DNA of 59,976 nucleotides from assembly GCA_964455175.1 (NCBI GenBank), contig CAYVUW010000004.1, positions 5,177-65,152 on the forward strand, in the 5' to 3' direction. Made by a program: the position numbers and the translations under genes. Below are positions 2,131 to 59,976 of this stretch, piece by piece; the first letter of the stretch is position 1; each line of letters starts with the position of its first letter. Source of the stretch: an uncultured Acidobacteriota bacterium (lineage in GTDB: Bacteria; Acidobacteriota; UBA890). The notes under the pieces were generated by a model. That model did not search any database and was not told the DNA's origin. It saw nothing but the letters and a program-made list of their open reading frames with translations.

Positions 2131-3519
2131 TTGCGTACACGGCTACTTTCAATCCTAACCTTGACTGCTTTAGGGGCCCCTTTGGTTGTGGGCGCCAACG
2201 TGGCCTCACTCCCTGCAGGGTCATTGGCTAGACAGCAAGCCACTGCTGCCGCATCACAAATTGATGGTGCCCGAACGCGGTGGGAAATCAGCTGCAACAT
2301 CCGCAAGGACAAATTCGATTTCGTTCTCCCGAAGGCGATGCGTGCCAACAACATCGATATGTGGATCGTTATCGACCGGGGCCGTGGTACGCAGCCAATG
2401 ACACTCGATTTCGCTATCTCGACGGTCAACGGACAGGGCTTCTTCGTTTTCATTAATCATGGTGCCGGTCGCATCGAACGTTTCCAGTTGGGAGGCGGAA
2501 GTGAATTGGCTCAGGAGTGCGGTGCGTACGACGATTTCCGCAGTCTCGGTGAGCTTCGGGACATCGTGATCCAGAGTGATCCACAGCGCATCGCATTGAA
2601 TTTCCTGGAAGTCCCGAACATACGTGAGGGGCTGCACGTTGCTGACGGGTTGACTCACAGTGACTTCCAATTCCTCAGCGAAGAGCTTGGTGAGCCGTAC
2701 GCCTCGCGCTTTGTTTCCGCACAGCAGTTGGTCGCCGATTTTCGCGGGGAGCGTGTTGCCCTAGAGCTGGTTGAATTCTCAAAGGTCGCTGATTTGACGA
2801 GCTCGTACATTGAACGTGCCCTATCTAACGAGGTTATTACCCCAGGTGTTACGACACACAACGATGTTTCCTGGTGGCTGGAAGAACAGCGCGAAAGTAT
2901 GGGTTTGTTGCGTACCTGGTACCCAACCGTTTACACACACCTCCCCGACGGAGGTGAGATCGGTGGGACAGACCGGGTTATTCAGCGTGGTGACGTGCTA
3001 CAGATAGATTGGGGACTCGAGCGCAACAATTTCGCAACCGATATCAAACGCTTCGGCTATGTGTTGCGTGAGGGAGAGACCGAGGTGCCACCGGGGATCC
3101 AGAATGCGTTTGAGGAATCGTTACGGGTGCAAAGGATCATTCGTAACAACGTCACATCAGGGCGCACGGGACGAGAACAAATTGACGCGCTGAAGCAAAT
3201 CATCAGGGACGCTGGCTACGTTTATACCGAAAAAGAACGAGCTAGCGATGTGGAGGGAATCGAGGTCAACGTTGGGATGCACGCCGCTGGTAATATCGGA
3301 CACGATATGGCGGCGTCGCTGTTCGAAATCTTTCCATTTCGCACTGAGTACATGGTCCGACCCAACAACATCATCTCGCTTGAGTACATCGTCTTCACTC
3401 CTGCTCCGGAGTGGGATGGGGCGAAAGTCCCCGTGAATGTTGAAGAGAATGCGACGATTACCGAGCGTGGCATCGAATGGCTTTACCCGCCACAGATGCG
3501 AGTACAGGTTATTCGATAG
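2131..3519 (+). CDS. Exported M24 family metallopeptidase (Xaa-Pro aminopeptidase-like)
   Basis: TTG start after AAGGAGG and an N-terminal signal peptide. Pita-bread ligands are QIDWG..ATDIKR (D,D), HAAGNIGH (H plus second His), SLEY (E) and VEEN (E). Confidence 0.85.
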   Translation: MRTRLLSILTLTALGAPLVVGANVASLPAGSLARQQATAAASQIDGARTRWEISCNIRKDKFDFVLPKAMRANNIDMWIVIDRGRGTQPMTLDFAISTVNGQGFFVFINHGAGRIERFQLGGGSELAQECGAYDDFRSLGELRDIVIQSDPQRIALNFLEVPNIREGLHVADGLTHSDFQFLSEELGEPYASRFVSAQQLVADFRGERVALELVEFSKVADLTSSYIERALSNEVITPGVTTHNDVSWWLEEQRESMGLLRTWYPTVYTHLPDGGEIGGTDRVIQRGDVLQIDWGLERNNFATDIKRFGYVLREGETEVPPGIQNAFEESLRVQRIIRNNVTSGRTGREQIDALKQIIRDAGYVYTEKERASDVEGIEVNVGMHAAGNIGHDMAASLFEIFPFRTEYMVRPNNIISLEYIVFTPAPEWDGAKVPVNVEENATITERGIEWLYPPQMRVQVIR

Positions 3520-3568
3520 GCCACGTCAATCTGCAGCTCTTGAGAAGCTATCGGCGCCCAGAAGGGCG

Positions 3569-4474
3569 TTACCTCCAGGAAGCACCGGCTCCTTCTCCGA
3601 TGTGGGTAGCCTCGCCGCTGACGAGCTCGATGAGCTTTAGCATAAACTGACCGTTCTCCCTTGCCGTCAAAAGGATCTGGCTGCCATCCGGTGACCACTC
3701 CGGAAAGGCGTCACCGAACATCATGCTCTCAGTTATTTGGCGTTTTTGGGAACCGTCGACGTTCATCACCCAGAGGTTTTTATCTTCTTCTGTGCCTGAG
3801 GCCCAGGCGACTTGGCTGCTGTCTCGTGAGAGTGATGGCCACTCATCAAGGTGGTTGTTTTCAGTTAGACGTCTGGTCTCTCCGCTCTCTGGATTCGTCA
3901 AGTAGATCTCAGGATTGCCGTCTCGGTTCGATTCGTAGACAACGGCAGCACCATCACGCCCCCATCGCGCGTAGGCATCGCTTGTGCTGCCAGTATCGAT
4001 ACGTTCTTCGGCTCCGGTTGCGACGATGATGAGGTAAAGGCCGCGACCGTTGGCATCATCCTTGGTAACGAGAATTTGCTCGCCACGTGGGCCCCAGTCG
4101 GCTGGGTTGCCATTGTTTGCGAGTGCCACGGAAGACTCCCCGGATTCCGTGTCCAGAATCATGACGTTAGCCGAATCCTCGTTCATTGCGACGAACAGGA
4201 CTCGATTGCCATCCGGTGACCACACCGGAAAGGCAACATGCCCTCCTAAAGAGGTCAATTGCTGGGGAACAAGGTCAGAGATATTTGCAGAGAACACTTC
4301 GGAGGCTTTGCCGGCGGGACTGGCGTAGACGATCTCAGGCTTCCCCATCGTTGCACTGGGCCCACTTGCGCCTTCGGCAGGCAATTCCCCCGTCGGTGTG
4401 TTACCTCCGGCGCAGGCTACGAGAATTAGTGCCAGTGCGACAGGAACACTCCGGAGCTGCCCACATCGAATCAC
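3569..4474 (-). CDS. TolB-like/PD40 six-bladed beta-propeller lipoprotein
   Basis: Lipobox LVAC; repeated P-x-WSPDG motifs (PVWSPDG, PEWSPDG), SNRDGNPEIY and WVMNVDGS. GTG start overlaps the upstream TGA (GTGA). Confidence 0.88.
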   Translation of the reverse strand: MIRCGQLRSVPVALALILVACAGGNTPTGELPAEGASGPSATMGKPEIVYASPAGKASEVFSANISDLVPQQLTSLGGHVAFPVWSPDGNRVLFVAMNEDSANVMILDTESGESSVALANNGNPADWGPRGEQILVTKDDANGRGLYLIIVATGAEERIDTGSTSDAYARWGRDGAAVVYESNRDGNPEIYLTNPESGETRRLTENNHLDEWPSLSRDSSQVAWASGTEEDKNLWVMNVDGSQKRQITESMMFGDAFPEWSPDGSQILLTARENGQFMLKLIELVSGEATHIGEGAGASWR

Positions 4475-5388
4475 TGGCTCTCCTCGGCCCGGGTCGGCCC
4501 GATCTCCTGCAACGTTTCTGAACTCGGTGCCACCATGGTGCGACCAACGGTCTGTTGGTACACCTCATAAAACTCAGGCAGCTTGTCCTCAAGGTCAGAA
4601 GCATTTCTGATCGTCCACTCGTCCCCTCCCTGCGGCCCGTAGGGTTCCTGGAGGTTCCACGCCGTGGAGATGATCCAATAGGCGAACTCTTGCATTAGAA
4701 CCCGATGATGTCTTTCCCCCATGTCGTCACCGTATTGCTCAACGTTGTAGTAGCCCTCGTCAATTGATTTTTGCATCGCCTGTGCTAGTGCCGAGGTTTC
4801 ATTGATGCCCCACTCGTTGGGGAACGTGTAGTGCAATCCGACATCGCTCGTGTAATGCAGAATATGCTCCACGACCTCCATTACCTGCCCGCTCGGCACG
4901 TCTTCCATGATGATGTCGCAGATGCTGTTCTGGCTTCTAGTTAGGTCAAACGCTTCCTCTTCTGTTTGCCTGTAACTCCTATCGTCTCCGACGGGAACAG
5001 GAATCACCGCCCTGTAGCGGTAGTGGTTCTTGAGAATCTCCTCTTGCATTTCCAGGTCAAGGTTTTCATCGCGCGGATAGATTTCGGCAATGGTCTTTCC
5101 AACTAGGCGCATGAAGTCATCGGAGGCATCTTCACGTGCTACCAACTTCAAGCCGCTTGCCGTGAGTTCTTTTGTAAAGGGCGGATATTCATTCGTCGTT
5201 GCAACGTCCGTTACCTCGTACACATCAGCGGGAACCTCACCGATGGGTGAAATTAGGATGCAGCCGCCGAACATCTCCGGCGAAGCATTTGTTTGGTTTG
5301 CTGCGTTGTCGGTAACCGAGTCAGTAACAGTTGTACTGCATGCTCCAAAGACAAAAACTGTAAGAAAAACAGCTGCGAGCAACTTCAT
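4471..5388 (-). CDS. Zincin-like (ATLF/PPEP-type fold) lipoprotein with an atypical EHILH motif
   Basis: ATG at 5388 after GGAGG; lipobox FGAC. VVEHILHYTSDVG aligns with ALEEILHMVSDVG of 46499-47332, and downstream QEFAYW aligns with SEYIYW. Confidence 0.7.
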   Translation of the reverse strand: MKLLAAVFLTVFVFGACSTTVTDSVTDNAANQTNASPEMFGGCILISPIGEVPADVYEVTDVATTNEYPPFTKELTASGLKLVAREDASDDFMRLVGKTIAEIYPRDENLDLEMQEEILKNHYRYRAVIPVPVGDDRSYRQTEEEAFDLTRSQNSICDIIMEDVPSGQVMEVVEHILHYTSDVGLHYTFPNEWGINETSALAQAMQKSIDEGYYNVEQYGDDMGERHHRVLMQEFAYWIISTAWNLQEPYGPQGGDEWTIRNASDLEDKLPEFYEVYQQTVGRTMVAPSSETLQEIGPTRAEESQ

Positions 5389-5459
5389 TGGGAAACCTCC
5401 GGTTGATAGCCTGACGCCAAACATGGATGTTTGTGTGATTCTGGGAAGTTAGCTTCCCG

Positions 5460-6524
5460 TCAACTAGTCTCCTGCGTACCAACGGAATCGGGCACCGTTG
5501 TTTTCATCCAGTAAGCAGTATTGTGAAAGTTTGCTGCGACGCTTCCGGGCGGTACCAGCGCGTCACACGCGGCGCGTGAATCGTCATCAAGGGTCATTTC
5601 AAGAACCGGCAATAGATGTTGAAGGTGATCAAGTGTGCGCGCGCCGATCAGTGGTGCAGTAATACCCGGCTGATCCTTGCACCACAGCACCGCCAACTGT
5701 GCCGGAGTGATGCCAACTTGCTTGGCAACCTTAGCGAACTCACGAGCAATCTCCACACCACGTTGCGTTACCCGATCGGCATAAAACCCGCCACGCTTAG
5801 CGGCGCGTGAATCGGCTGGGTATTCATCGGCGTTGTTGTAACGTCCCGCTAGCACACCCATGCCCAAAGAGCCCCAGCAGATGATTCCGAGTCCGTGGCG
5901 CTGTGCCAGCGGGATTAGCTCGTTCTCGATACGCCGATCCAAAAGATTGTACGGTGGTTGCTCTGAGGCATAGCGCACCCAGCCCTTCATCTCGGACACC
6001 ATGATTCCCTCCATGACCAACCAAGCTGGTTGGGTCGAGCATCCGATGTAGCGCACCTTGCCTTGCTGTACCAGATCGTCGAGGGCGCCAATAGTTTCGT
6101 CGAGCGGAATATCGAAGGATGGGCGGTGCAACTGGTATAAGTCTATGTAGTCAGTTTGCAAGCGTCTTAATGACTCCTCGCAAGCGCGAATGATGTTCAG
6201 CCGCGAGTGCCCAGATTCATTAGGGCCGACACCGGGAACTTCTTCATCGAGTGAGATCCCGCGGCGCCTTCGTCCATGGTCGACCTTAGTGGCAATGAGG
6301 ACCTTATGGCGGATACCGCGTTCCTTAATGGTTTGGCCGATAATGGTCTCGCTCATACCCTCTGCGTAGACATCGCCGGTGTCTATCAGGTTGATGCCCG
6401 CGTCAATCGCTTGGTTGATGATCGCAGTTGCTTCATCCGCAGGCGTTGCGTCACCGAAGTTATCTGAGCCAAGACAGAGAGGGGAAACATTCACACCTGT
6501 GCGGCCGAGGATTCTGTATTGCAC
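5460..6524 (-). CDS. Aldo/keto reductase (paralog 1 of 3)
   Basis: GTG start ([18 protein letters not shown]) after AGGAAGG. Catalytic tetrad motifs are DTGDVY, ATK and LYQLH; [11 protein letters not shown] is also present. Confidence 0.93.
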
Positions 6525-6653
6525 TTTGCTTGCCTTCCTAGGATACGAAGCAATTCTTTTCACCGCGTTCGCGGACCGTACATCGTATACGATCTGTGCT
6601 CCTTTGCTGCTGCCACCGCTTTAATCTAAGACAACCTAGCTAGGAGACATGCT

Positions 6654-7502
6654 GTGATGTTGCGTTACTTACTCGTTGCATCGGTCGCGGTTACTTCTGT
6701 GGACGGGACCGCACCGGTGCAAGACGAAGTGTTGGCTGCGTTTCCTATTATTGAGACCGGGGAGAAAGTAATCATTCCGCCTCTGGGGGTACATCCCTTC
6801 TATCAGAAGTACATCAACGCGGAAGGCATCCTCATAGTCAGTTCGGTACAAGTTCCGGATGCGGCCCTCCTAGCGGCGCGGCGCACTGTTTTACATCTGC
6901 TTGCCCGCAGACCTGATGTGCACATAGAGATGTTGGCCTACAATCCGCGTATTTCCATCATGGGCGTCTCAGAGACTGCGTCGGATTTGCCCGAATTTGA
7001 TGTCGGCGCTGATGGCCAATGGGGGTTGGGGCAGATGCAGGGCGACCCAACCACGCTCGTTTCTGAACGCGGAATTTGCTACCCAGGGAACACTAAATAC
7101 CGCGCCAATTTTTTGTTACATGAATTTGTCCACAACATGCAGAATTTGGGTTGGATCCAGACCGACCCTGGTGTCGATGAAGAAATCTATGCGGCCTACA
7201 GCAACGCGGTAGCCCGAGGTTGGTTTGCTCCCCCGAGAACTGAAACGATGGGTATTGGACCAGATCGTTCCTTTGGGGATGACGAATACCTGACCCACAA
7301 CGTTAACGCTTGGTTTAACCTTAACGAATCGTTGCCGGGGCCCTGGGTAGATGTCCAGATTGGCGAGGCAGGGCCGCTCTCGGGGACGCGGGAACAGCTG
7401 CGCCAACGTGACCCGGCACTGTTTGAGATCATCGACCGTTTTCTTCCCGACTCGCTGGGGGACTTGATGAGCGGTTGTCCGCCGAATGTGGTTGATTGGT
7501 AA
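6654..7502 (+). CDS. Exported zincin-like metallopeptidase (canonical HEFVH)
   Basis: AGGAGA RBS and signal peptide. LLHEFVH zinc motif, downstream DEYL third-ligand motif and C-terminal LRQRDPALFEII helix typical of ATLF/PPEP-like domains. Confidence 0.75.
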   Translation: MMLRYLLVASVAVTSVDGTAPVQDEVLAAFPIIETGEKVIIPPLGVHPFYQKYINAEGILIVSSVQVPDAALLAARRTVLHLLARRPDVHIEMLAYNPRISIMGVSETASDLPEFDVGADGQWGLGQMQGDPTTLVSERGICYPGNTKYRANFLLHEFVHNMQNLGWIQTDPGVDEEIYAAYSNAVARGWFAPPRTETMGIGPDRSFGDDEYLTHNVNAWFNLNESLPGPWVDVQIGEAGPLSGTREQLRQRDPALFEIIDRFLPDSLGDLMSGCPPNVVDW

Positions 7503-7504
7503 AA

Positions 7505-8011
7505 ATGTCTCGTCGGTTCCTAATCAGCATCCTGGAAGTCACGCGAACAGCAGCGCGTGCCGTTGTAGTCCTTGCGTTCGCCACGATTGTCATCGTGGTG
7601 TTTGGGCAGGTCGTTTCACGCTTTCTATTCAACGCTCCGTTTTCATGGTCAGAGGAGTTGGCCCGATATCTCCAAGTTTGGCTGATCATGGTGGGATCGG
7701 CTGTCTGTCTTCGTAAAGGGCTGCATCTGACTGTTGACTACGCTGTCCATTCGTTGCCGGAGGGCAGCACGAAGCGAAACCTGCACCTCCTATCGCTAGC
7801 GGCAATTCTGTTTTTCCTAGGGATCGTATTCATCTCTGGCATCTCACTGATTACAGCGACGCTAAATCAACGAACACCTGCACTGCAGATACCAATCTGG
7901 GTTGTCTACTTGGCCATACCTGTCGGTAGTTTCTTGATGTTTTTGGAATCGGTTGGTCTCGTACTGACGGCATTCGACGGCGCGAGCCCGCCAATGGATG
8001 GTGACCAATGA
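7505..8011 (+). CDS. dctQ: TRAP transporter small permease
   Basis: About four hydrophobic segments; motifs QVVSRFLFNAPFSWSEELARY and GLHLTVD; directly upstream of dctM. Confidence 0.92.
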   Translation: MSRRFLISILEVTRTAARAVVVLAFATIVIVVFGQVVSRFLFNAPFSWSEELARYLQVWLIMVGSAVCLRKGLHLTVDYAVHSLPEGSTKRNLHLLSLAAILFFLGIVFISGISLITATLNQRTPALQIPIWVVYLAIPVGSFLMFLESVGLVLTAFDGASPPMDGDQ

Positions 8012-8033
8012 ACTTGGGGGAAGAAGTGCAGCG

Positions 8034-9317
8034 ATGATCGCGATTCTTGTTATCGCCATCGTGGTGTTTTTTCTCATCGGCATGCCGATTGCTTTTGCGA
8101 TCGGTGCCGGTTCGACGATTGCGATTCTATGGGATGGGACATTGCCGATCTCGATCGTCGCGCAGCGGATGTTCTTCGGACTCGATTCGTGGTTACTAAT
8201 GGCAATCCCGCTATTTATGCTCGCCGGCCAACTGATGGCTGCTGGTGGTATGTCGTCACGCTTGGTCGCCTTCACGACCGAACTTTTCGGTTTCATACGC
8301 GGCAGTTTGGGTTTCGTCTGCGTTGCGGCGTCAATGACTTTTGCGGGAGTTTCTGGTTCTTCGACCGCCGATACTGCGGCGGTCGGGTCGATTCTCTTGC
8401 CGCTGATGAAGGAGCGTGGCTACGACATGCGGTTCGCGACGGCATTGCAGGCCGCTGCAGGGTCGATCGGCCCAGTTATACCCCCCAGTTTGCTGATGAT
8501 CCTGATTGGGTTTACTACCAACACCTCGGTTTCAGCACTTTTTCTTGGAGGTATTGTTCCGGGGCTGTTAATCGGTCTTGGCTTGATGGTGGTGACGTAC
8601 GTGCATGCTGCCCGCGGCGGCCCTGCCTACCTGGGCACGCAAACGCACGTCGATTTCCGCCGCGTTGTGCGTACCGGTTTAGTGGCGGCGCCAGCACTTG
8701 GTATGCCAGTGATTATTCTAGTGGGCATCGTCGGAGGGATTTTTACCACTACCGAGGCTGCCGTCGTAGCGGTTGTGTACGGCCTGGGTGTCGGCATGTT
8801 CGTCTATAGAGAAATCTCGCTGCGTGACCTTCCGGGTATCATCGCCCGCTCCGCGGAGCTCGCCACAGTTATCATGTTTATACAGACGACGGCTTTTCTG
8901 TTTGCTTGGTTAATTACCGTTCACCAGGTTCCAGCCTTGTTAGCGAAGGCTTTCGTGGCACAAGTGAGCGGTCCCGGCACATTCTTCCTCCTCTACATCC
9001 CGCTTCTTTTGTTGGTCGGAGCGGTGATGGAGAGCTTCTCAGCCACGATCGTGTTACTGCCGATCATCTTTCCGATCGCACAGAGTCTCGGGGTAAACCC
9101 GGTTCACTTCGGGGTGGTTACGACCGTTGGGTGGGCGATTGGTTATGTCACGCCGCCGTTCGGCGCCACGCTGTTCGTTTCTTGTAGCCTTACCGGCAAG
9201 AGCATTCGAGAAACAACACCGTTCATTCTACCGATCGTCTTGTCAATGCTAGCTGTGTTACTACTGATAACCTTCTTCCCAGCAGTCGTGTTGTGGATTC
9301 CGGACATGTTTCAGTGA
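8034..9317 (+). CDS. dctM: TRAP transporter large permease
   Basis: Motifs LMAIPLFMLAGQLM, FAGVSGSSTADTAAVG, IGPVIPPS, NPVHFG and TPPFGATLF. Start placed at the ATG after GGGGGAAG (ORF track starts at 7998). Confidence 0.95.
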   Translation: MIAILVIAIVVFFLIGMPIAFAIGAGSTIAILWDGTLPISIVAQRMFFGLDSWLLMAIPLFMLAGQLMAAGGMSSRLVAFTTELFGFIRGSLGFVCVAASMTFAGVSGSSTADTAAVGSILLPLMKERGYDMRFATALQAAAGSIGPVIPPSLLMILIGFTTNTSVSALFLGGIVPGLLIGLGLMVVTYVHAARGGPAYLGTQTHVDFRRVVRTGLVAAPALGMPVIILVGIVGGIFTTTEAAVVAVVYGLGVGMFVYREISLRDLPGIIARSAELATVIMFIQTTAFLFAWLITVHQVPALLAKAFVAQVSGPGTFFLLYIPLLLLVGAVMESFSATIVLLPIIFPIAQSLGVNPVHFGVVTTVGWAIGYVTPPFGATLFVSCSLTGKSIRETTPFILPIVLSMLAVLLLITFFPAVVLWIPDMFQ

Positions 9318-9334
9318 AGGGCGAGGAGGGTGCG

Positions 9335-10324
9335 ATGTCGACAAGGCATGGTTTAGCGACCGTGCTACTGGCGGTGGTGCTGCTGGTGAGTTCTTGCGTA
9401 AGGGGTGCCCCCGATGTCTTTATTATCAAAGTGGCATCGTCGGCTCCGGCGGATGAGCCGGGATCACGGGCCCTGCAACGTTTCGTTGACGTCCTCAATG
9501 AAGCCGCCCCTGGACGTGTCGAGGCGAGACTATTCGCAGCAGCGGCACTCGGAAACGATCGAGATGTTACCGAAGGGTTGAAACTCGGCACAGTCGAGAT
9601 GCAGATGGCTTCGAACTCGACGCTGGCTACTTTCGTTCCCGAGATGTATGTCTTCGAGATGCCGTTTTTGTTTGAAGATAACGAGCACATGTTCGCGGTG
9701 CTCGATTCGGAAATAGGAGAGAGTTTTCGTCCTGCACTTGAACGTGAAGGCTTCCATCTGATGGGTTACTTCACATTTGGCTTGAGGCACATCATGACCA
9801 CGGAGAAGCCGATTGGCACGATGGCTGATCTGGGAGGCCTCAAGATTCGAACCATGGAGAGTCCACCACATCTAGATGCGTTTGCCGCCTTCGGTGCTAA
9901 TCCTCTGCCGATGGCTTACAACGAGCTATACACGTCCCTCGAAACAGGTGTCATTGATGGCGCCGAGGCTGCCAATTCGAATTATTATTCGAAGAAATTC
10001 TATGAAGTGGCGCCTTATTGGGCTCAAGTTGGCTGGCTGCGTTTAGTAGCACCTGTGATTATGAGCAAAGCGTTTTACGACAGCATGCCTCTAGATCTCC
10101 AAGAATTAGTCGACAAGACACTTAAAGATCTCGAAGCATACGAACGGCAGCTTTACACAGAGGTTGATGAGCAGCGGCTACGTGACCTGGAGGCGGCGGG
10201 GGTTAGCGTCACCTATCCTGCCGCCGGGGCTTTCGTTGAAGCGTCTTCGACTGTTTACGAGGCATGGCTCCAGAGAATTGGCGGGCGAAGCCAGCTAAAC
10301 GCGATCCTCGATTTTCCTCGTTGA
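9335..10324 (+). CDS. dctP: TRAP transporter substrate-binding protein, probable lipoprotein
   Basis: GAGGAGG RBS; lipobox VSSC. Motifs LGNDRDVTEGLKLGTVEM, KIRTMES (carboxylate-binding Arg) and ELYTSLETGVIDGAE. Confidence 0.92.
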   Translation: MSTRHGLATVLLAVVLLVSSCVRGAPDVFIIKVASSAPADEPGSRALQRFVDVLNEAAPGRVEARLFAAAALGNDRDVTEGLKLGTVEMQMASNSTLATFVPEMYVFEMPFLFEDNEHMFAVLDSEIGESFRPALEREGFHLMGYFTFGLRHIMTTEKPIGTMADLGGLKIRTMESPPHLDAFAAFGANPLPMAYNELYTSLETGVIDGAEAANSNYYSKKFYEVAPYWAQVGWLRLVAPVIMSKAFYDSMPLDLQELVDKTLKDLEAYERQLYTEVDEQRLRDLEAAGVSVTYPAAGAFVEASSTVYEAWLQRIGGRSQLNAILDFPR

Positions 10325-10357
10325 GGCCTTTGTGATCGAATACTTGAGCGTTTGCTT

Positions 10358-11350
10358 ATGACCGGTCGGTCCATTGCCATCCCAGTTGGAGAGATCCGCG
10401 GTGCGCACGCTCGAATCGAACCATACATTCATCGCACACCGATTTTAACGAGTGAGACACTGGATGCAGCGTTCGGTAGCCGCATTTTCTTCAAGTGTGA
10501 GAACTTTCAGAAGAGTGGAGCTTTCAAAGTAAGGGGTGCGTTCAATGCCTTACTTTCGCTGTCACGGGAGGATGCGGCGCGTGGCATCGTCACTAGCTCT
10601 TCTGGTAATCAAGCCGCCGCTGTTTCGCTTGCCGCCGCCGCACGGGGTGTCAGTGCTTACATCGCCATGCCAAAAATCGCCGTCGCGTCGAAAGTTGCAG
10701 CAGTTCAACGCTATGGCGGCAACATTGTCTGGGTTGAGTCGAATAATCGTATTCCTACCTCGGAAGAATACGACGCTACGGCATTGGCAATACAGGAAGA
10801 AACTGGCGCCAACCTCGTGCACCCGTACGACGACCTGAGAACAATTGCCGGTCAAGCAACCTGTGCCTTCGAGTTACTCGAAGAGGTACCCGATATTGAC
10901 TACTTGTTGGCACCAGTGGGTGGTGGTGGACTCCTGAGTGGCACCTGTTCGAGTGCCGCAGCATTAGCGACCGGTACGAAGGTTGTCGGCTGCGAGCCGG
11001 AGAAGGCTGACGACGCGTGGCGTTCTTTTCAAGAAGGAACAATCGTTCCTCAAATTGATCCTCAGACTATCGCCGACGGGCTGCGCACTTCATTGGGCGA
11101 GTATACGTTTCCGATCATCGCTGCGAACGTCAGTGAGATTGTCACAGTGTCGGAAGACGCGATCCTTAGGTCCATGCGGCTGGTTTGGGAAACCATGAAA
11201 ATCGTCATTGAGCCAAGTGCTGCGGTGCCTGTGGCGGCACTGTTAGAAAATAAGATTTCGGGACACGCGGATCGCATTGGGGTGATTCTGTCGGGTGGCA
11301 ACGTTGATCTGGACTCTTTGCCTGATTGGTCGGAGCTCTCAGCTGAGTAG
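10358..11350 (+). CDS. PLP fold-type II serine/threonine dehydratase family enzyme, serine racemase / hydroxyaspartate ammonia-lyase type
   Basis: FKCENFQKSGAFKVRGA (PLP Lys), SSSGNQA, PVGGGGLLSG, EPSAAV and ILSGGNVD. No C-terminal ACT regulatory domain. Confidence 0.88.
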   Translation: MTGRSIAIPVGEIRGAHARIEPYIHRTPILTSETLDAAFGSRIFFKCENFQKSGAFKVRGAFNALLSLSREDAARGIVTSSSGNQAAAVSLAAAARGVSAYIAMPKIAVASKVAAVQRYGGNIVWVESNNRIPTSEEYDATALAIQEETGANLVHPYDDLRTIAGQATCAFELLEEVPDIDYLLAPVGGGGLLSGTCSSAAALATGTKVVGCEPEKADDAWRSFQEGTIVPQIDPQTIADGLRTSLGEYTFPIIAANVSEIVTVSEDAILRSMRLVWETMKIVIEPSAAVPVAALLENKISGHADRIGVILSGGNVDLDSLPDWSELSAE

Positions 11351-47332: not shown

Positions 47333-47477
47333 AGGTGTTGGCTTCAACTTGTCCCCGCTTTCGCCAAGAGAGGCAGTTTAAGATGGGTGACATTTCATCT
47401 CGGAATGCGATCCCAGACCCTTTGAAACCCCAGGTTTTGTAAGCCCCCAGCCTCCAAAAGAAAGCCGGAGATGCCGC

Positions 47478-50624: not shown

Positions 50625-52229
50625 TTACCAAGGCCGAGGTGCCACGCGCGGCAGTTTTTCGTCGCGCATGGCAGCATGGTAAGCGAACGTTGCCAACACA
50701 ACTGCTGACTGCATCAGCCCCTCCGGCACCAATCGCTCGTAGGTATCCATGCTGCCGTGGGCGTTGATGTTGTCAATGACCTTCCTGTCTTGCTCAAAAT
50801 AGAAGCCAGGCAATCCGACTTCTTCGTAAGCCTCGTGTTGCAACCCGGTGGTAAACAAATGAGTCATCCCGAGGTTACGCAGCGGCTTCATCCATTCTAA
50901 GAAAATGGACCGAACAAGCTCGTTACCCATAATCGATACCCCACGAATCCTGCCGCTGCCAATATCCATATTGAAATAGGCTGACAGGTTCTCGTAGTCT
51001 TCCTTGTATTCCTTTGTTTGTGGGTCGGCGAAGTTTGTACGTACGTGATGGCGATTACCGAACAAGCCCATTTCGTGCCCGCCCCAGAGTCCAAAGCGTA
51101 TGGTTCGCCTTGGCCTCACGCCGATGGCAGCAAGCGTGCGTGCCGCCTCCATGGTGGCAACGACCCCGGCAGCATCGTCGACGGCGCCGGTAGCTGCGGG
51201 GTTCGCTTCCAGATGTGCGCCGACAATAACTAGCTCGTGCGCTAGGTCAGTGCCAGGGATCTCAGCGATAACGTTGTGATCGGTAAGGTCGTTACGGCTG
51301 AAAGAAACTCTAACGTTGGCTTCTATCTCCACTGGTACGCCCTTCTCGAGGATGCGCATGATGCGGTTGTAATGCTCCGCTGACATCACAAGCTCCGGTG
51401 GGTGCGGTGTTGCATCGACCTCCCAGGGCTTGGTTTCCAGGGTGTACCTATTATTCTCGACAACTACCGTCCCGTAGTCGGTACGCCCGTCAGTGCGAAC
51501 AATAGCTGCAGCACCCTCGGCGAAAACGAAGTCGATAATCTGCTGGCGGGGCAATGTGGATCGATTCGCGCTCCGCTCCGACTGGACGGGATTGGTTGGC
51601 CCGACTGTAATCTTTGCCATTGCGTCGAGCTCTTCTTCAGTGAAGCCTTCCGGTAGCAGCGGGATAGTTGTACTGATTGCTTGTTTCGGATGAGTTAACA
51701 CAAGTGCGTTCTTTAGTCTTCCCCGATACGGTTCTAGATCTATCTCGCCCTCGATCTGAGAAAAATCTAAGTAGACCGCTGGACCTTGCACCTTCCCGTT
51801 GGTGCCCTGGGACCAGGTTGCCGGGTAGGCAAGCAGCGACATGTATTGGGGTTTCATCATATGAACTGAGATGTACTCATTCACATAGCCGATGCCGAAT
51901 TCATAAGGCTCTAAATATGAGTTTGAAATTCCATATTCCTTGAACTTCTCGACTGCCCATTCAGCAGCGGCTTTGTACCCAGGGGATTTGGCGACGCGGG
52001 GGCCGAACACGTCAGTCAGCCAGCTAGCGTTGTCCATAAGCTCGGTGTTAGTGAAGATTTCCTCACGGATTTGTTGTGCGACATCCCAGTACACTGGTTC
52101 CTGTAGGGGCGCTGATGACACTGGGAGAACCGAAAACACCAGTAGGACTGAGGCAAGCATGGTCACTACGCATCTGCGGCTAGCGATTTGGGCTTGTTGC
52201 GGGGCTCGTTCCATTTGCTTGCTCACCAT
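50625..52229 (-). CDS. Exported M28-fold protein, GGHE variant
   Basis: Signal peptide. Motifs GAHLEA, GAVDDAAG, WGGHEMG, FNMD and AHGSMDTYE; C-terminus APRPW. Start overlaps the upstream stop. Confidence 0.85.
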   Translation of the reverse strand: MVSKQMERAPQQAQIASRRCVVTMLASVLLVFSVLPVSSAPLQEPVYWDVAQQIREEIFTNTELMDNASWLTDVFGPRVAKSPGYKAAAEWAVEKFKEYGISNSYLEPYEFGIGYVNEYISVHMMKPQYMSLLAYPATWSQGTNGKVQGPAVYLDFSQIEGEIDLEPYRGRLKNALVLTHPKQAISTTIPLLPEGFTEEELDAMAKITVGPTNPVQSERSANRSTLPRQQIIDFVFAEGAAAIVRTDGRTDYGTVVVENNRYTLETKPWEVDATPHPPELVMSAEHYNRIMRILEKGVPVEIEANVRVSFSRNDLTDHNVIAEIPGTDLAHELVIVGAHLEANPAATGAVDDAAGVVATMEAARTLAAIGVRPRRTIRFGLWGGHEMGLFGNRHHVRTNFADPQTKEYKEDYENLSAYFNMDIGSGRIRGVSIMGNELVRSIFLEWMKPLRNLGMTHLFTTGLQHEAYEEVGLPGFYFEQDRKVIDNINAHGSMDTYERLVPEGLMQSAVVLATFAYHAAMRDEKLPRVAPRPW

Positions 52230-53857
52230 GGTCGCGGTACCGCCCGAGGTAACTTCTCGTCGCGCATCGCAGCGTGATATGCGAACGTGGCCATAACGAC
52301 TGCATTCTGAATCAAATCCTCGGGAACCAGGCGATCGTACAGATCCATGTTCGTATGTGCGTTCATGTCATCGATCGCCTTCCGGTCTTGATCGAAATAG
52401 AAGCCCAACAACCCGACTTCTTCGTAGGCCTCATGTTCCATTCCGTTGAGGAACAGGTGTGTCATCCCCAAAGCGCGCAGCGGTTTTATCCATTCAAGAA
52501 GAATTGACCGCAGGACCTCACTCCCCATAATTGAAACGCCACGGACTTTTCCGGTACCGATGTCCAGATTGAAATAGGCTGAAAGGTTGTCGTAGTCAGC
52601 CTTGTACTCTTGGGTTACTGGGTCTGCAAAGTTTTGCCGGACATGGCTGCGGTTGCCGTACAAACCCATTTCGTGCCCACCCCAGAGACCAACTCGAATC
52701 GTCCTGCGAGGCTGTGCCCCGATAGCCATGAGAATCCTCGCTGCCTCCATGGTTGCAGCGACGCCGGCACCATCGTCGATGGCTCCGGTACCGACCGGTT
52801 CCGACTGCAGATGCGCACCGATGATGACGATCTCATGCGCCAGATCAGTTCCAGGGATTTCAGCAATAACGTTGTAGTCGTAAGGGTCGTCAGCCGGAAA
52901 TTCGACTCTGATCTCGAGTTCCATCTCAACCGGAATGTCTTTCTCCAGAATCCGCATCATGCGGTTGTAGTGCTCTGCCGCAATGATTACCTCGGTAATT
53001 GGCGCTGGAGCGTCTGCTTCCCACATGCGCCGTTCCATTGAATAACCATTGACCGCAGCATCTACCATTCCCAGCCCGTTGCTCCCATCGGGCCGAACTA
53101 CCGCTAGTGCGCCCTCGGCGAAAACGAAATCGTAGATTTGTTCGCGTGATAGTCGTTCATCATGCGGTCTTTGTTCCCGGGACTCTTCGGATTCCGGGCC
53201 GGGGATGGGAATCGCTGCCATCGCGTCGAGCTCTTTGTCAGTGAAGCTCGTGGGTTTGAACTGAAAGTGGGTGGGAACGGTTTGTATTGGACTGATGAGG
53301 ATAATGAAGTCTTCTAACTGGCCGCGGTAGGGATCCAGATCCGCTTCGATGGCAAACGCTTCGAAGTTGACGTACTTAACGGGTGCCCGAATCTTTCCAT
53401 CTGTACCGGCTGACCATGGTGCAGGATAGGCGATGAACGGCGAGTACCGTGGGCTCGTCATGTGCACCGACGTGTATTTGTTGTCCCAGCCTGCCGCGAA
53501 GTCGAACGGCTCCAATCGAGCTTCAGACAAACCGTAATCATCGAGTTTCTGCCGCGCCCATTCCGATGCTGCAATGTAGCCGGAAGACTTTGAGTTCCTC
53601 GGCCCGAAAACATCGGTGAGCCAGCTAGCGACCTCCATTACCTCCGAACGTTCGAAGGCCTCCTCCATTATTTGGCCGACGGCATCCCAGTACACTGGCT
53701 CCGGTTCAGGTGTTGGAGTAGCTATTTGAGGATTCTGTGGTTGCCACGGAATCAAGGCACTGGCCGGTGAGACAACCGCAGAGGCTAGAGACAACGCGGC
53801 TACTAAAATGCCCGGGCCGCGCGTGATTATCCGGCCATTCCATGGCCGGGCCCTCAT
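52223..53857 (-). CDS. Exported M28-fold protein, GGHE variant
   Basis: Signal peptide. Motifs GAHLQS, GAIDDGAG, WGGHEMG, FNLD and AHTNMDLYD; C-terminus VPRPW. Confidence 0.85.
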   Translation of the reverse strand: MRARPWNGRIITRGPGILVAALSLASAVVSPASALIPWQPQNPQIATPTPEPEPVYWDAVGQIMEEAFERSEVMEVASWLTDVFGPRNSKSSGYIAASEWARQKLDDYGLSEARLEPFDFAAGWDNKYTSVHMTSPRYSPFIAYPAPWSAGTDGKIRAPVKYVNFEAFAIEADLDPYRGQLEDFIILISPIQTVPTHFQFKPTSFTDKELDAMAAIPIPGPESEESREQRPHDERLSREQIYDFVFAEGALAVVRPDGSNGLGMVDAAVNGYSMERRMWEADAPAPITEVIIAAEHYNRMMRILEKDIPVEMELEIRVEFPADDPYDYNVIAEIPGTDLAHEIVIIGAHLQSEPVGTGAIDDGAGVAATMEAARILMAIGAQPRRTIRVGLWGGHEMGLYGNRSHVRQNFADPVTQEYKADYDNLSAYFNLDIGTGKVRGVSIMGSEVLRSILLEWIKPLRALGMTHLFLNGMEHEAYEEVGLLGFYFDQDRKAIDDMNAHTNMDLYDRLVPEDLIQNAVVMATFAYHAAMRDEKLPRAVPRPW

Positions 53858-53890
53858 CAAACCGCGTCTCTTGCCGGCGTAAAATCCCAA

Positions 53891-55798: not shown

Positions 55799-55994
55799 AG
55801 TGTGCTTCTGCAACTCTCTGGAGACCGTTTCTTCCCGGAGGGACTCTGTCTCCTATTTTCGAAAAAAATAACAAGAAACCACGAGATTTGACCGAAGGAT
55901 GCCCTAGAATTCGCTGCGGATCCATTCTGAACGTTGACCTAGTTAGAAACTGTAATCGGGTAATGGGGCAAGCTCGTCAGGGAGAGAGATAGTG

Positions 55995-57422
55995 ATGACC
56001 TTTAGAACACTTTTACAAGTAGCTGTATTTTCGGCTGTTGTTTTGTTCGTCGCGCCGATTGCCTATGGGCAATCGGATGTAATGACGGCGAAAGTAAGCT
56101 CGGAAATTCTCCACCTAATGCGGAAAGAAAAACTTGACCTCATACTTCCTGGGGCCATGCGTGACAACAACATTGACATGTGGATCCATGTCACGCGGCA
56201 AGGTGATCCGGACCCAATGGTCCAGCAGTTTGGCAACGCGTGGGGATACATTGTTTTTACGGACCGGGGAGGAGACCGGATTGAGCGAGCGTTGTTCGGT
56301 GGCGGCGGTAGTCGGGAGCTATTTGATATCTTCGGTTCACGGGCAATCCGGATGGCGATCGCCGGTTATGACTACGGCGATCAAGATTTCTCTGTCTACG
56401 ATGAGCTGCGAAATTTCGTCGCCGAGCGAAACCCATCGACAATAGCGGTTAACACTTCCGATTGGCTTGCGATTGCAGATGGAATATCTCATTCACAGTA
56501 CGTAAAGCTCCAGAAAATCCTTGGCCCCGAGTATTCCAAGAAAATCGTCTCAGCGGAAAATGTGATCACGGATTTTCGGGCGCGTCGAACACAACGGGAG
56601 ATCGTCGCCTACGCGAATGCGTTGGAAATACACCGTCAAATTCTCGAACGCTCTTTGTCCAATGAGGTGATAACCCCAGGGGAGACTACTTTAGGGGAAG
56701 TGGGTGCGTGGGTTAGAGAGCAGTTTCACCAGCGGGGCTTGTTGCGAGGGCCCGATGCAGGCGCAGGGTCCCCCGGGATCCTGTATTCAGCGACGGCGTC
56801 AAAGCTGGGGCGGTTTGATGATGATGACTACGTGATCCAGCGTGGTGATTTCCTGACGTTTGACACAGGTGTTAGATATCTCGACTATTTCTCGACGGAT
56901 TACAAACGCAATGCTTATGTTCTCAGGGAAGGTGAAACTGCTCCTCCCGAGAGTATTCAGCACGCATTTGATCGAGCTGTCGGTGCTCGTGAGATCATGC
57001 GCAAGGAAATCAAGGTTGGTCGAACGGCTGGGCAGACGTTGGCTGCCAGCGTGGAAGCAATGGAAGCTGCTGGCTACATTTACACACCTTTTACCGATAT
57101 TGGTGAAGATGACTACATGCTCGTGCAGGAGGCACTCATCAATACCGACAAATCGGGATTTTCTATTGATTTTCACAGCCAGGGGAACAACAGCGGTAGT
57201 TTGGTGACGGTCGGACCTTCGGTGGCTCCATTTCGATCTGACCGAGATCACTTAGTAATTCAGGAAAACCACATGTTCTCTTTCGAATACATGGTTCACA
57301 CGAATGTTCCAGAACGTCCTGGCTATCCTGTTTCGATCAACATCGAAGGCAATCACATCGTGACCAGCCGGGGTGTGGAATACCTTTATCCGCCAAATGA
57401 ACGAATTTTGCTGATTTACTAA
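55995..57422 (+). CDS. Exported M24 family protein, HSQGNN variant
   Basis: Signal peptide. Motifs TFDTG..STDYKR, FHSQGNNSG, SFEY and IEGN. Long near-identical stretches shared with 27119-28555 (PVSINIEGNHIVTSRGVEYL). Confidence 0.86.
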   Translation: MTFRTLLQVAVFSAVVLFVAPIAYGQSDVMTAKVSSEILHLMRKEKLDLILPGAMRDNNIDMWIHVTRQGDPDPMVQQFGNAWGYIVFTDRGGDRIERALFGGGGSRELFDIFGSRAIRMAIAGYDYGDQDFSVYDELRNFVAERNPSTIAVNTSDWLAIADGISHSQYVKLQKILGPEYSKKIVSAENVITDFRARRTQREIVAYANALEIHRQILERSLSNEVITPGETTLGEVGAWVREQFHQRGLLRGPDAGAGSPGILYSATASKLGRFDDDDYVIQRGDFLTFDTGVRYLDYFSTDYKRNAYVLREGETAPPESIQHAFDRAVGAREIMRKEIKVGRTAGQTLAASVEAMEAAGYIYTPFTDIGEDDYMLVQEALINTDKSGFSIDFHSQGNNSGSLVTVGPSVAPFRSDRDHLVIQENHMFSFEYMVHTNVPERPGYPVSINIEGNHIVTSRGVEYLYPPNERILLIY

Positions 57423-57444: not shown

Positions 57445-59070
57445 TTGAACCTTGGAAGTCGGACATTTGTTGTAATGGTTGCATTCCTGGGCATGGTGGC
57501 GGTGGGCTCGCATGCTTTGCCCAATGCTTTTGGGGCGAAACAGGGAAGCTACGAGGACCTCCTTGAGCTATTCCGACAATTCAGGAATTTTCAGCGACCG
57601 GAAATCCAGACAACCGTGCCTGACTATTCCGCGACCACTATGGCGGAACAGTTTGTCGAGTTGCGCCAGTTTCAGCGCAGACTTGCCGATATCGACATTG
57701 ATGGTTGGTTGATTCATGAGCAGGTTGACTACCACCTGGTGCGGGCGGAGATGAACGGTATGGAGTTCCAGCATCGCGTGCTGGCTCCTTGGTCGCTCGA
57801 TCCGGGGTTTTACAATGATGTATTGCCACGCCTTGGTAGGGCACAGGATTTTCCGCTCAGTGAATCTAGAGCCGATGAGTTGCAAGTTCGTCTCAGGGCC
57901 GTCGCCGAGATAATCGAGCAGGCCAAGGTGAACCTTAACGACTTCTCCCGGATTGCCGCCGATCTCGGCACGCTTGCTGTCCTTTCACTGGGAGACACTC
58001 GTGAATCGTATGAGCAAATCGTCGCTGATCTTGCCGAGCACCATCCGGACTTGGTGGAGGATGGTCTTGAGGCCCTTGCCGCAATCGGTGACTACATAGC
58101 GTGGATAGAGAATAACAAGCGCCGAATGACTGCCCGGGCTGGGGTCGGCAAGGAAAACTATAGCTGGCTGATGAAAAACGTTTACCTCTTCCCGTACACC
58201 TGGGATGAGGTTCGTATGATCGTGGAACTTGAAGACAATCGTGTCAGGACTTTCCAGCGCCTTGAGGAGAATCGTAACCGAAACGTTCCTCCAATTGAGC
58301 CAGTTCAGTCACAAGCTGAGTACAAAGCTAGCGTCTCTGAGGCGATTGAGCATCTGATGGATTTTTTAGTGAAAGAACGAATTTTCACGGTGGATGACTA
58401 TTTAACACCGGATGGATACTTTGGCTCATGGCATGGATTCGACAATCCTTGGCCCGAAAAGCACGATTATTTCTTCAATTTTTCTCATCGCGAACCGCTA
58501 ATGGAAGAGACTCACGAGATGGTCGGGCACCATTTTGATGGGTTACGTTCACGGAATGACCAACGTGAGATCCGTGGTGGTAGACGGCCGTACAAGATTG
58601 GCACCGCGCGGGGAGAAGGGCTCGCGTTTGCACTTGAGGAACTGCTAATGCACGCCGGCTATCTTGACGGCAGGAACCCTCACGGACGCGAAATTACCTA
58701 TGAGCAATCTGCCTTTCGCACCGTCCGTGCCCTTTCGGACATCTATATGCACAGCGGCGATTGGAGCTATGAGGATGCGTATCAGTTCTGTGTAGAAAAT
58801 GCGCCCCACGGTGAATTGCTCGATGGCAGTCACCACCTATGGTTCGAACTTGATACCACCCTGAGAGGTGTGGGGCACCATATGCTCATGGTCGTTGGGA
58901 AGGTTCAGTTCATGAAGCTAATGAGAAATCGTGCCAACCAGCTCGGTGATGATTTCGTTCTCGAGGAATTCATGGACGATGTCCTCAACACCGGATCGAT
59001 TCCCTGGTCCTTAATTCGTTGGGAGATGACTGGGTTAGACGACGAGATCAAACAATTGACCGTGCAGTGA
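57445..59070 (+). CDS. Exported DUF885-like metalloprotein (THEMVGH)
   Basis: TTG start after GGGGAG; signal peptide. Motifs QVDYHLVRAEMNG, HEMVGH, GEGLAFALEE and SLIRWEMTG. Confidence 0.78.
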   Translation: MNLGSRTFVVMVAFLGMVAVGSHALPNAFGAKQGSYEDLLELFRQFRNFQRPEIQTTVPDYSATTMAEQFVELRQFQRRLADIDIDGWLIHEQVDYHLVRAEMNGMEFQHRVLAPWSLDPGFYNDVLPRLGRAQDFPLSESRADELQVRLRAVAEIIEQAKVNLNDFSRIAADLGTLAVLSLGDTRESYEQIVADLAEHHPDLVEDGLEALAAIGDYIAWIENNKRRMTARAGVGKENYSWLMKNVYLFPYTWDEVRMIVELEDNRVRTFQRLEENRNRNVPPIEPVQSQAEYKASVSEAIEHLMDFLVKERIFTVDDYLTPDGYFGSWHGFDNPWPEKHDYFFNFSHREPLMEETHEMVGHHFDGLRSRNDQREIRGGRRPYKIGTARGEGLAFALEELLMHAGYLDGRNPHGREITYEQSAFRTVRALSDIYMHSGDWSYEDAYQFCVENAPHGELLDGSHHLWFELDTTLRGVGHHMLMVVGKVQFMKLMRNRANQLGDDFVLEEFMDDVLNTGSIPWSLIRWEMTGLDDEIKQLTVQ

Positions 59071-59134
59071 ACCACACTCTGTTGACCTCCTTGTTTTCAA
59101 TGCCGCGCAGTTAACTAAATAGACGAATTAAGAA

Positions 59135-59976
59135 GTGACTACGACAACCTTTTCGTCACAGGAAATTGCACTAAAAGTTACGGCTCTGCTGTTTCTGGCA
59201 TCAACAGCCACAATGGCCTATGCAATACAGGACCAAGCTGTTGAGTCTTTCCCACTGATCGAAACAGGGGAGCAGGTGGTGGCTCCCCCGAATGGGACAC
59301 CTCTTTTTTACACGAAGTACATCAACGCTGGCGGTGTTGTCACCGTCTGCTCCGAGGCTGTGCCCGACGCTGCTTTAATTGGGGCTTACCGGACCTTCCT
59401 GCATTTGACGAGTCACCGGCCAGACGTTCTCGAAGCTATGCTGCAACACAAGCCCCGGATCTCGATCATGGGGCTATCGGAAACAGCTTCGAACTTGCCT
59501 GAATTCGGCCTCTCCAGTGATGGGCAATGGGGCCTCGGCCAAATGCCTGATTCGTCGACCAGCTTGGTGTCCGTGCGTGGTGTTTGCTACCCGGGTAATG
59601 GCGAGTACCGAGCCAATTTTCTGCTCCACGAGTTTGTCCATGCCATGCAAAACTTGGGCTGGCCGACAACAGACCCTCAAATTGAAGATGAGGTATGGGG
59701 GGCCTACGTAAATGCGGTTAAACAAGGTTATTTCAAAGCCCCTAGCAACGAACCGCTGGAAGGCATCACCCCGTTCGATGCGTTTGGGGACGACGAGTAC
59801 CTTACCCACAATGTGAACGCCTGGTTTGATCTGAACGAATCACTGCCTGGTCCCTGGGTGGATGTCCAGATCGGCGACAGTGGTCCCCCTTCAGGTACCC
59901 GCGCTCAACTCCGTGCCCGCGACCCACAGCTGTACAAAATCATCGGACGCTTTCTGCCTGATACTTTGGGAGATCT
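59135..59976 (+). CDS. Exported zincin-like metallopeptidase (HEFVH), 3' truncated; absent from the ORF track
   Basis: Manual translation of frame 2 from GTG 59135 gives MTTTTFSSQEIALKVTALLFLASTATMAYA...FPLIETGE...YRANFLLHEFVH...GDDEYLTHNVNAWFDLNESLPGPWVDVQIG, with no stop before the window end. Close paralog of 6654-7502. Confidence 0.85.
   Translation, partial: MTTTTFSSQEIALKVTALLFLASTATMAYAIQDQAVESFPLIETGEQVVAPPNGTPLFYTKYINAGGVVTVCSEAVPDAALIGAYRTFLHLTSHRPDVLEAMLQHKPRISIMGLSETASNLPEFGLSSDGQWGLGQMPDSSTSLVSVRGVCYPGNGEYRANFLLHEFVHAMQNLGWPTTDPQIEDEVWGAYVNAVKQGYFKAPSNEPLEGITPFDAFGDDEYLTHNVNAWFDLNESLPGPWVDVQIGDSGPPSGTRAQLRARDPQLYKIIGRFLPDTLGD

Follow-up and report, generated by a model that had tools for sequence, protein, structure and literature searches.

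The locus described here raises the question of why a single stretch of a bacterial genome should be so densely occupied by exported proteins of peptidase fold, many of them with active sites that depart from the textbook form. The stretch (hereafter the window) spans 59,976 bp, positions 5177–65152 of contig CAYVUW010000004.1 (C4), in the 2.45-Mb, 68-contig, 89% complete genome of an uncultured Acidobacteriota bacterium. A first-pass annotation of this DNA had counted 19 peptidase-fold genes of four unrelated folds and read them as an exported island, with most active sites remodelled, that may form one system. Our Pfam scan of the 42 open reading frames (ORFs) of the window, with motif alignment of six of them, yields 6 M24 (PF00557), 4 M28 (PF04389), 3 DUF885 (PF05960) and 6 small HExxH/EExxH/EHxxH proteins, so the earlier counts are right; from their coordinates, these 19 genes take up ~25.9 kb (43%) of the window. 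The folds number three rather than four: M24 and M28 stand apart, while the small proteins and DUF885, which we take to belong to the zincin-type Pfam clan, both appear to be of zincin type. A hydrophobic N-terminal segment is found in 18 of the 19 proteins (the exception being DUF885 13227–14813), which bears out the description of nearly all of them as exported; these calls come from a heuristic scan, not SignalP, with gene starts left unrefined. The lipobox pattern is matched by two of the 19, and a third protein, 41284–42573, has a suitably placed Cys by eye. The answer that emerges is that every variant motif marks an old subfamily in which it is conserved, as conservation, monophyly and purifying selection show, and that the window gathers locally four families whose joint expansion runs through this marine Acidobacteriota order and is far stronger in a lineage with sampled relatives distinct from those of the window.

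The M28 proteins, in which canonical and variant sites occur side by side, are encoded by four genes:

21376–22980, + strand: M28, canonical site (HFD, D, EE, D, H); PF04389, 1.1e-27
42625–44163, − strand: M28 'HE' variant (HLQ, D, HE, D, H); PF04389, key-position state HQDHEDH
50625–52229, − strand: M28 'HE' variant (HLE, D, HE, D, H); PF04389
52223–53890, − strand: M28 'HE' variant (HLQ, D, HE, D, H); PF04389

All four score 72.8–97.5 bits against PF04389 (cut-off 21.3), and the last two genes overlap by 7 nucleotides. The motifs of the canonical copy (GGHFD, TDNASG, WGSEEAG, NTD and WHS; key-position state HDDEEDH) are in register with those of 3iib and SGAP 1cp7. The three variant copies read GGHLQ or GAHLE, D, WGGHEMG, D, H, and the H-E of WGGHEMG in 42625–44163 aligns exactly on the E-E of both structures. 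None of the four window copies lacks any of the five metal ligands (H, D, E, D, H), which are likewise complete in 152 of 154 aligned relatives, and the textbook general-base Glu (of EE) and the Asp of HxD are present in 21376–22980 only; because HE and HxQ/HxE replace EE and HxD in the other three, these are M28 members by fold and ligands, not by catalytic dyad.

The variant state is shared by a large group. All 120 best database relatives (51–99% identity) carry HE or HD at the general-base site, and EE is carried by more distant M28 relatives (~40% identity; Bacteroidota, other Acidobacteriota and others). Across the seven key positions of the 154-sequence alignment, 73 sequences read HDDEEDH and 74 read HQDH[E/D]DH, with few near-variants. 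On the phylogeny of these sequences (FastTree, as for all trees here) the HE/HD state needs one change, with all its carriers on one side of a branch with support of 99, so that monophyly of the variant motif, proposed earlier as a check, holds for M28. The HE form is therefore one ancient substitution in which general base and second-shell Asp changed together and all metal ligands were kept. Source names within the clade include Aminicenantes and Hydrogenedentes metagenome-assembled genomes (MAGs) and one Marinacidobacterales MAG.

An engineered Glu-to-His M28 enzyme (2005) is called functional in the title of a paper cited in PMC4320195, and the HE form may therefore still be a peptidase. 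The window M28 proteins share the PF04389 domain and the five ligands with AAP of Aeromonas/Vibrio proteolyticus, SGAP 1cp7 and Shewanella 3iib, the last being matched in the N-terminal region as well as in the M28 domain; they differ in that three window copies, and the whole clade with them, have His for the general-base Glu and Gln or Glu for the second-shell Asp. As a side observation, an M28-HE protein scores 33.4 bits against the AAP entry 2anp and 29.7 against wild-type AAP 1amp, whereas the canonical EE copy shows the reverse preference (32.5 and 34.8 bits), a pattern of scores that would fit 2anp being a Glu-to-His mutant of AAP.

The second group comprises six small proteins:

4471–5424, − strand: zincin-like lipoprotein, EHILH, downstream of an AKR gene; recognised by motif and phmmer
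6654–7502, + strand: small zincin-like protein, HEFVH…EY, upstream of TRAP genes; recognised by motif, no Pfam or NCBIfam match
17100–18380, + strand: zincin-like protein, EEVLH with a C-terminal RTX-like repeat; RTX and SapA-like C-terminal matches
41284–42573, + strand: zincin-like protein, EEIMH with a C-terminal RTX-like repeat, probable lipoprotein; recognised by motif
46499–47347, − strand: zincin-like lipoprotein, EEILH…E208-Y; homologues and AlphaFold2 (AF2) model
59135–59974, + strand: small zincin-like protein, HEFVH, running off the window end; recognised by motif

These proteins align mutually on the HExxH/EExxH/EHxxH site and on a downstream E-Y, and phmmer cross-matches 4471–5424 to 46499–47347 at 9e-6; their catalytic region matches no Pfam family, even at E ≤ 5, and no NCBIfam family. 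HExxH proper occurs in two of the six (both HEFVH), the other four having EExxH or EHxxH. For 46499–47347, 819 homologues were retrieved, none of them with a name; EExxH is invariant in the 121 examined and E208 in 43 sequences. A profile of the six window proteins reaches at least 2,629 representative clusters among 1.84 billion. When the 144 best profile matches are aligned with the six window proteins (150 rows), the downstream Glu is aligned in all six and in 142 rows overall, while EExxH is found in 125 rows (121 of them with the distal Glu), EHxxH in 10 and HExxH in 11. Profile–profile comparison (hhalign) places the LEEILH of the EExxH family on the LHEFVH of the HExxH proteins (probability 79%, E 1.7e-5).

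EExxH is therefore the prevailing form in a large zincin-like family without a Pfam entry, not a local remodelling. The first-pass term 'remodelled' misdescribes the small proteins, because EExxH with the distal Glu is the usual family form and HExxH the minority. In the AF2 model of 46499–47347 (pLDDT 90), E141-E142-x-x-H145 lies on a helix at 138–155 and E208 on a helix at 202–218. Foldseek matches to this model are weak and below significance (best E 0.03, TM 0.2–0.36), with gluzincins, namely M9 collagenases, M1 aminopeptidases and lethal-factor-type M34 enzymes, at ranks 1–9 and in most of the top 30. The predicted model resembles the gluzincins (ATLF/M34, M9 collagenase, M1) in having a beta-sheet followed by an xExxH helix and a later helix with Glu. 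HExxH members exist within the small-protein superfamily, and a distant one scores above the cut-off of the Pfam ATLF model PF07737 (41.1 versus 27.4 bits, 2e-10), although no window protein matches that model even at E ≤ 5. The difference from the gluzincins is that the first zinc-binding His is Glu in most members of the family.

The largest of the Pfam-defined groups is M24B-like:

2131–3519 (ORF 2026–3519), + strand: M24B-like; PF00557, 9.1e-12, five ligands
18440–19840, − strand: M24B-like; PF00557, 3.2e-12, reference for alignment and model
22989–24374, − strand: M24B-like; PF00557, five ligands
25695–27047, − strand: divergent M24-like, Arg at the His-ligand position; PF00557, 3.9e-9
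27119–28555, + strand: M24B-like; PF00557, five ligands
55992–57422, + strand: M24B-like; PF00557, five ligands

PF00557 scores for the six copies are 28.1–47.1 bits (cut-off 23), and in the first of them the signal-like segment starts at about ORF residue 40. Five of the six have the complete set of metal ligands D, D, H, E, E, the exception being 25695–27047, which falls into a separate sub-clade of the tree that is common to the other lineage. Across 31 diverse M24 sequences D283, D294, E422 and E442 (numbering of 18440–19840) are invariant and H385 is present in ≥90%, as is H426, a family-specific His four residues past the fourth ligand. More than 2,545 relatives of 18440–19840 are found at E ≤ 1e-5, labelled only as M24 or Xaa-Pro peptidase, and NCBIfam has no family for the window M24, DUF885 or small proteins.

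A phmmer search of 18440–19840 against PDB sequences returned no relative. The 31-sequence profile, when compared with PDB, aligned only over the N-terminal half of the catalytic domain, and places both Asp and the last Glu on their counterparts in Pyrococcus furiosus prolidase. The AF2 model (pLDDT 87) has as its best Foldseek match the Xaa-Pro aminopeptidase 2zsg (E 2e-18, target-normalised TM 0.77); DoeA/EutD and DddP, the repurposed enzymes with which the first-pass annotation had drawn its analogy, are returned with probability 1.0 but rank below ~17 peptidase structures, so that the M24 fold matches Xaa-Pro aminopeptidases and prolidases best. Like the M24B enzymes of that kind (2zsg, 1pv9, E. 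coli PepP and YpdF), the window proteins are two-domain with D, D, H, E, E, and combine the pita-bread fold with a creatinase/prolidase-like domain at the N-terminus. They differ in identity (only 12–19%), in being exported, in an insertion in the C-terminal half, in copy number (25 to 178 per genome for the subfamily) and in their conserved His residues: the 'PH' His of M24B enzymes is without a counterpart in the profile alignment, and H426 is specific to the family. The conserved non-ligand His of M24B enzymes are presumably H243, H350 and H361 of E. coli PepP.

Further M24-like paralogs lie elsewhere in the same genome (C14:35893–37350, C51:13386–17642, C5:7685–10836 and C42:2–1051). In such off-window paralogs His or other residues replace the first Asp and the last Glu ligand (e.g. 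ILHGAG, AFHDG), a second and different remodelling of the metal site, which is common to the other lineage.

The three remaining genes belong to DUF885:

13227–14813, − strand: DUF885, HTFFGH, without a signal segment, directly downstream of an AKR gene; PF05960
39478–41259, + strand: DUF885, HEFIGH; PF05960, weak match to 3u24
57445–59070, + strand: DUF885, HEMVGH, followed by an HExxH small protein; PF05960

Their PF05960 scores of 79.5–84.9 bits (cut-off 32.4) extend over part of the model and are low for the family. Two copies carry HExxGH with a downstream E, as in the DUF885 family (solved lipoprotein 3u24), and the third, 13227–14813, differs from that family in being cytoplasmic and in having Thr at the Glu position; only 4 codons separate its start from the upstream stop. 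Most of 16 DUF885 paralogs and relatives have HE, with a few HT, HG, HN or HH. DUF885 is a family to which no activity is assigned; of 17 papers that mention it, none of the 15 listed names it in title or abstract.

Whether these variants are decaying duplicates can be judged from a same-genus genome (G004) that is fully syntenic over the right-hand 34 kb of the window. Ratios of non-synonymous to synonymous substitution (dN/dS) were calculated by the Nei–Gojobori method, skipping G004 codons with ambiguous bases; ratios between paralogs, at which synonymous sites are saturated (40–60% identity), were dropped in favour of these same-genus orthologues. The peptidase-fold genes have values of 0.04–0.18, against 0.07–0.25 for neighbouring genes:

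M24: 25695–27047, 0.086; 27119–28555, 0.049; 55992–57422, 0.040
M28: 42625–44163, 0.078; 50625–52229, 0.113; 52223–53890, 0.149
DUF885: 39478–41259, 0.111; 57445–59070, 0.080
Small proteins: 59135–59974, 0.171; 41284–42573, 0.175

With frames intact and ratios no higher than those of the neighbouring genes, relaxed selection or decay of the peptidase-fold genes is excluded, in agreement with the earlier view that the variants are not decay products.

The window is not the only place where these families accumulate. The same genome holds ~25 M24-subfamily matches, 7 close M28, 7 DUF885 and 8 zincin-like matches over many contigs (copy counts here and below are six-frame matches, fragments included), so that the window is not a unique island but a local peak of a genome-wide expansion, enriched ~tenfold relative to its own genome (Poisson P 7e-4 to 7e-8 per family). 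Comparable enriched regions are present in same-order genomes, for example at 320–460 kb of contig C9 of G017. Across 26 same-order genomes M24 copies range from 1 to 32, compared with 0–3 in other orders of the phylum, and the families co-occur, with copy numbers that co-vary (M24/zincin-like rho 0.90, M24/M28 0.77, zincin-like/M28 0.84) and are weakly related to genome size (rho 0.37); co-occurrence across genomes, another check proposed at the outset, is thereby borne out.

The expansion is far more pronounced in three complete MAG chromosomes of 3.8–4.1 Mb, OZ252239, OZ244870 and OZ251221, which have 131, 125 and 178 M24-subfamily matches, respectively, some of them with internal stops, together with 21–30 close M28 matches (including tandem runs of five) and 26–33 zincin-like matches of EExxH type. 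Sampled relatives of these genomes, which are not among the window's phylum relatives, have 0–2 M24 copies, counts that scored part of the candidates and hence run lower than the 125–178. On the tree, M24 sub-clades interleave between the OZ genomes and the window's genome, with at least 6 label changes, and the M24 sub-types are therefore old and shared between the two lineages, by descent or transfer. No description of the extreme paralog expansion of the OZ genomes was found in the literature searched, nor was anything specific found there on Marinacidobacter, Acidobacteriota peptidases or sponge symbionts. A diet of sponge collagen or proline-rich peptides was considered from the sponge-project style of MAG names and dropped as unverified.

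Gene context recurs across these genomes in loosely conserved form. In loci around M28-HE genes of other genomes, M24, DUF885, zincin-like, BNR/Sortilin, SSS and AKR genes are found again, shuffled and often co-directional. The DUF885→HExxH protein pair recurs in loci of four further genomes, two congeneric and two from other genera, and an M24→HExxH protein pair is kept in three, where the closest relatives of 22989–24374 directly adjoin an HExxH small protein in same-order genomes. Gene order is shuffled between genera and only such pairs are conserved, so that one coherent system is too strong a description.

Several neighbouring genes bear on what the exported proteins might do:

5460–6563, − strand: AKR, cytoplasmic (no signal segment); PF00248
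11485–13179, − strand: sodium:solute symporter (SSS), downstream of the signal-less DUF885 gene; PF00474
14818–15843 and 20036–21142: two further AKRs; PF00248
53891–55813, − strand: CocE/NonD (S15) hydrolase, exported; PF02129, PF08530, TIGR00976 at 417 bits

Each of the three AKR genes lies upstream of a peptidase-fold gene, and the CocE/NonD gene stands in the same gene run as two M28-HE genes. NCBIfam matches of the SSS protein are at superfamily level only. The association with transporters and AKRs that had been noted earlier recurs inside such arrays in the other lineage: SSS homologues lie between M28-HE and M24 genes (L002, L004) and an AKR homologue between an M28-HE and an EExxH gene (L029), loci L002–L012, L017 and L029 being on OZ252239.1, OZ244870.1 and OZ251221.1. 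The link proposed to TRAP transporters fares less well, as flanks of ~1.5 kb around relatives of the HExxH protein in other genera showed no TRAP genes.

In the window itself, the run 6654–11350 (+) consists of the HExxH small protein, TRAP DctQ, DctM and DctP, and a pyridoxal phosphate (PLP) enzyme closest to the beta-hydroxyaspartate dehydratase BhcB (407 bits, below the cut-off of 550). At 16129–18380 (+), an agmatinase-like ureohydrolase without a signal segment (171.5 bits, below the cut-off of 174.3) has a stop that overlaps the start of the exported EExxH+RTX gene 17100–18380 by 4 nucleotides, an odd pairing of cytoplasmic and exported products. Two Sortilin/Vps10-BNR repeat proteins of ~930–970 aa are encoded at 35027–37810 (−) and 47658–50561 (+); since their homologues in the other lineage are flanked by M28-HE genes (L003, L006), they may belong to the arrays. 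The gene at 37992–39320 (−) encodes an exported 'choice-of-anchor B' (TIGR04312-like) protein with five close paralogs on other contigs. Two more gene groups stand out: the co-directional genes at 28628–34949 (−), for a ThuA-like protein, a 976-aa multihaem cytochrome c, DUF7133 and DUF1080 (3-keto-disaccharide hydrolase), look like a sugar-oxidation module separate from the peptidase-fold genes, and at 44289–46419 (−) a GMC oxidoreductase gene overlaps a 196-aa ORF with a twin-arginine-like N-terminus (RRQLIRMG), probably forming a two-subunit periplasmic dehydrogenase.

Taking these observations together, we incline, with modest confidence, to the interpretation that the exported families are a diversified battery of exo-hydrolases for peptide-type substrates, with uptake of the products by co-clustered transporters. 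Located in the periplasm or at the surface of the cell, the proteins would act as metal-dependent exo-hydrolases, and their many sub-types would between them trim peptide-type (amide) substrates of many kinds from dissolved or particulate organic matter. The His of the M28-HE form would serve as general base, and the E-x-x-x-H and distal Glu of the EExxH proteins would bind metal. Products may then be imported by the SSS or TRAP transporters and processed in the cytoplasm by the AKR, agmatinase-like and PLP dehydratase-like enzymes.

Several points weigh against such a battery. The zincin-like fold assignment of the small proteins leans on weak Foldseek scores (E ≥ 0.03, TM 0.2–0.36). In the M24 profile alignment to 1pv9 and 3q6d no His stands opposite the conserved M24B 'PH' His, and one or two carboxylate ligands are missing from several M24 paralogs elsewhere in the genome, so not every M24 copy can be a standard dinuclear hydrolase. 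The laboratory mutant of the AAP general base, which we take to be residue E151, is reportedly ~2000-fold slower as E151H than the wild type, and the natural HE clade may therefore be tuned for another substrate or reaction; to our knowledge that mutant is the sole precedent for a His base in M28, and we know of no natural M28 of this kind that has been characterised. Plain peptide degradation leaves the presence of cytoplasmic AKRs within operons of exported hydrolases unexplained, and for none of the four families did any returned homologue have a specific functional name, generic automatic labels being all that was found.

It is possible, though on balance we think it unlikely, that the variant subfamilies have instead left peptide bonds for other C-N or C-O reactions of small or modified nitrogen compounds, as the first-pass annotation had suggested, acting on amidines, guanidino compounds, osmolyte-like amides or lyase substrates and passing the products to the SSS and TRAP transporters, the AKRs and the agmatinase-like enzyme. 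The return of DoeA/EutD and DddP by the M24 fold search is compatible with this idea, as are the lack, by profile alignment, of a 'PH' His in the M24 subfamily and the coupled change of general base and second-shell Asp in the M28 clade. The same is true of the AKR, SSS and agmatinase-like genes in or beside the arrays, the first two recurring in another lineage and the last overlapping an EExxH gene start. DoeA and DddP nevertheless rank beneath the peptidase structures, the ligands of the dinuclear sites are all kept, and the TRAP link is not seen in relatives. Moreover, exported enzymes acting on small metabolites would be unusual, and dozens to >100 sub-types per genome suit the diversity of polymers or peptides better than that of a few small molecules.

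We regard it as improbable that many of the copies are non-catalytic pseudoenzymes that bind or sense, capturing peptides or metals at the cell surface; at the same low probability, binding-only roles would fit a minority of copies. Candidates for such a role are 25695–27047, without its His ligand, DUF885 13227–14813, with Thr at the Glu position, the off-window M24 paralogs that lack one or two carboxylates and the copies with internal stops in some genomes of the OZ lineage. Most window copies nonetheless have the full ligand set and dN/dS values as low as those of neighbouring enzymes, and because the substituted positions are strictly conserved as H, E or Q, they suggest chemistry rather than loss.

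Lastly, a recently acquired mobile island, or a set of decaying duplicates without common function, is scarcely credible and largely refuted: paralogs are tandem or near-tandem and sub-types of M24 and M28 also occur in a lineage that is not among the sampled relatives of the window (M28 at 55–68% identity), which suggests horizontal transfer at some time, but GC is flat across the window (0.525–0.573), scans of the window found no tRNA gene, no Rfam match and, among the Pfam results of its ORFs, no integrase or transposase family, the 34 kb are fully syntenic with the same-genus genome, comparable enriched regions exist in same-order genomes, and selection is purifying. The empty tRNA and Rfam scans also mean that the window offers no tRNA-linked island border and no riboswitch clue to the substrate.

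As a conceptual analogue of the peptide-directed battery, polysaccharide-utilisation loci and sulfatase arrays likewise combine exported paralogs of a few hydrolase families, clustered with transporters, with lineage-specific expansion and shuffled gene order. The difference is that the families of the window are of peptidase fold rather than glycoside hydrolases, and no SusC/D-type or regulator gene was seen among the window Pfam results.

Three large, conserved and uncharacterised enzyme groups are now delimited by clear sequence signatures: a natural M28 clade in which His stands at the position of the Glu required by the textbook mechanism, an EExxH…E superfamily that numbers at least 2,600 representative clusters and has no Pfam entry, and a widespread exported M24B-like subfamily. 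Each provides a direct test of how far such metal sites can be re-tuned. The joint expansion, with 125–178 M24, ~20–30 M28 and ~30 zincin-like matches in ~4 Mb, suggests specialised harvesting of organic nitrogen. More speculatively, and with a probability that we would put as low, the four families could form one transferable, co-evolving toolkit with non-textbook centres, namely a dinuclear M28 with a His base, a zincin-like site ligated by Glu, His and Glu, and an M24B form that dispenses with the customary helper His, directed at amide bonds beyond the reach of ordinary peptidases, such as those of D-, N-methylated, cyclic or otherwise modified peptides of host matrices or refractory marine organic nitrogen. 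If this were true, >200 genes in genomes of ~4 Mb would define a nutritional strategy not yet described.

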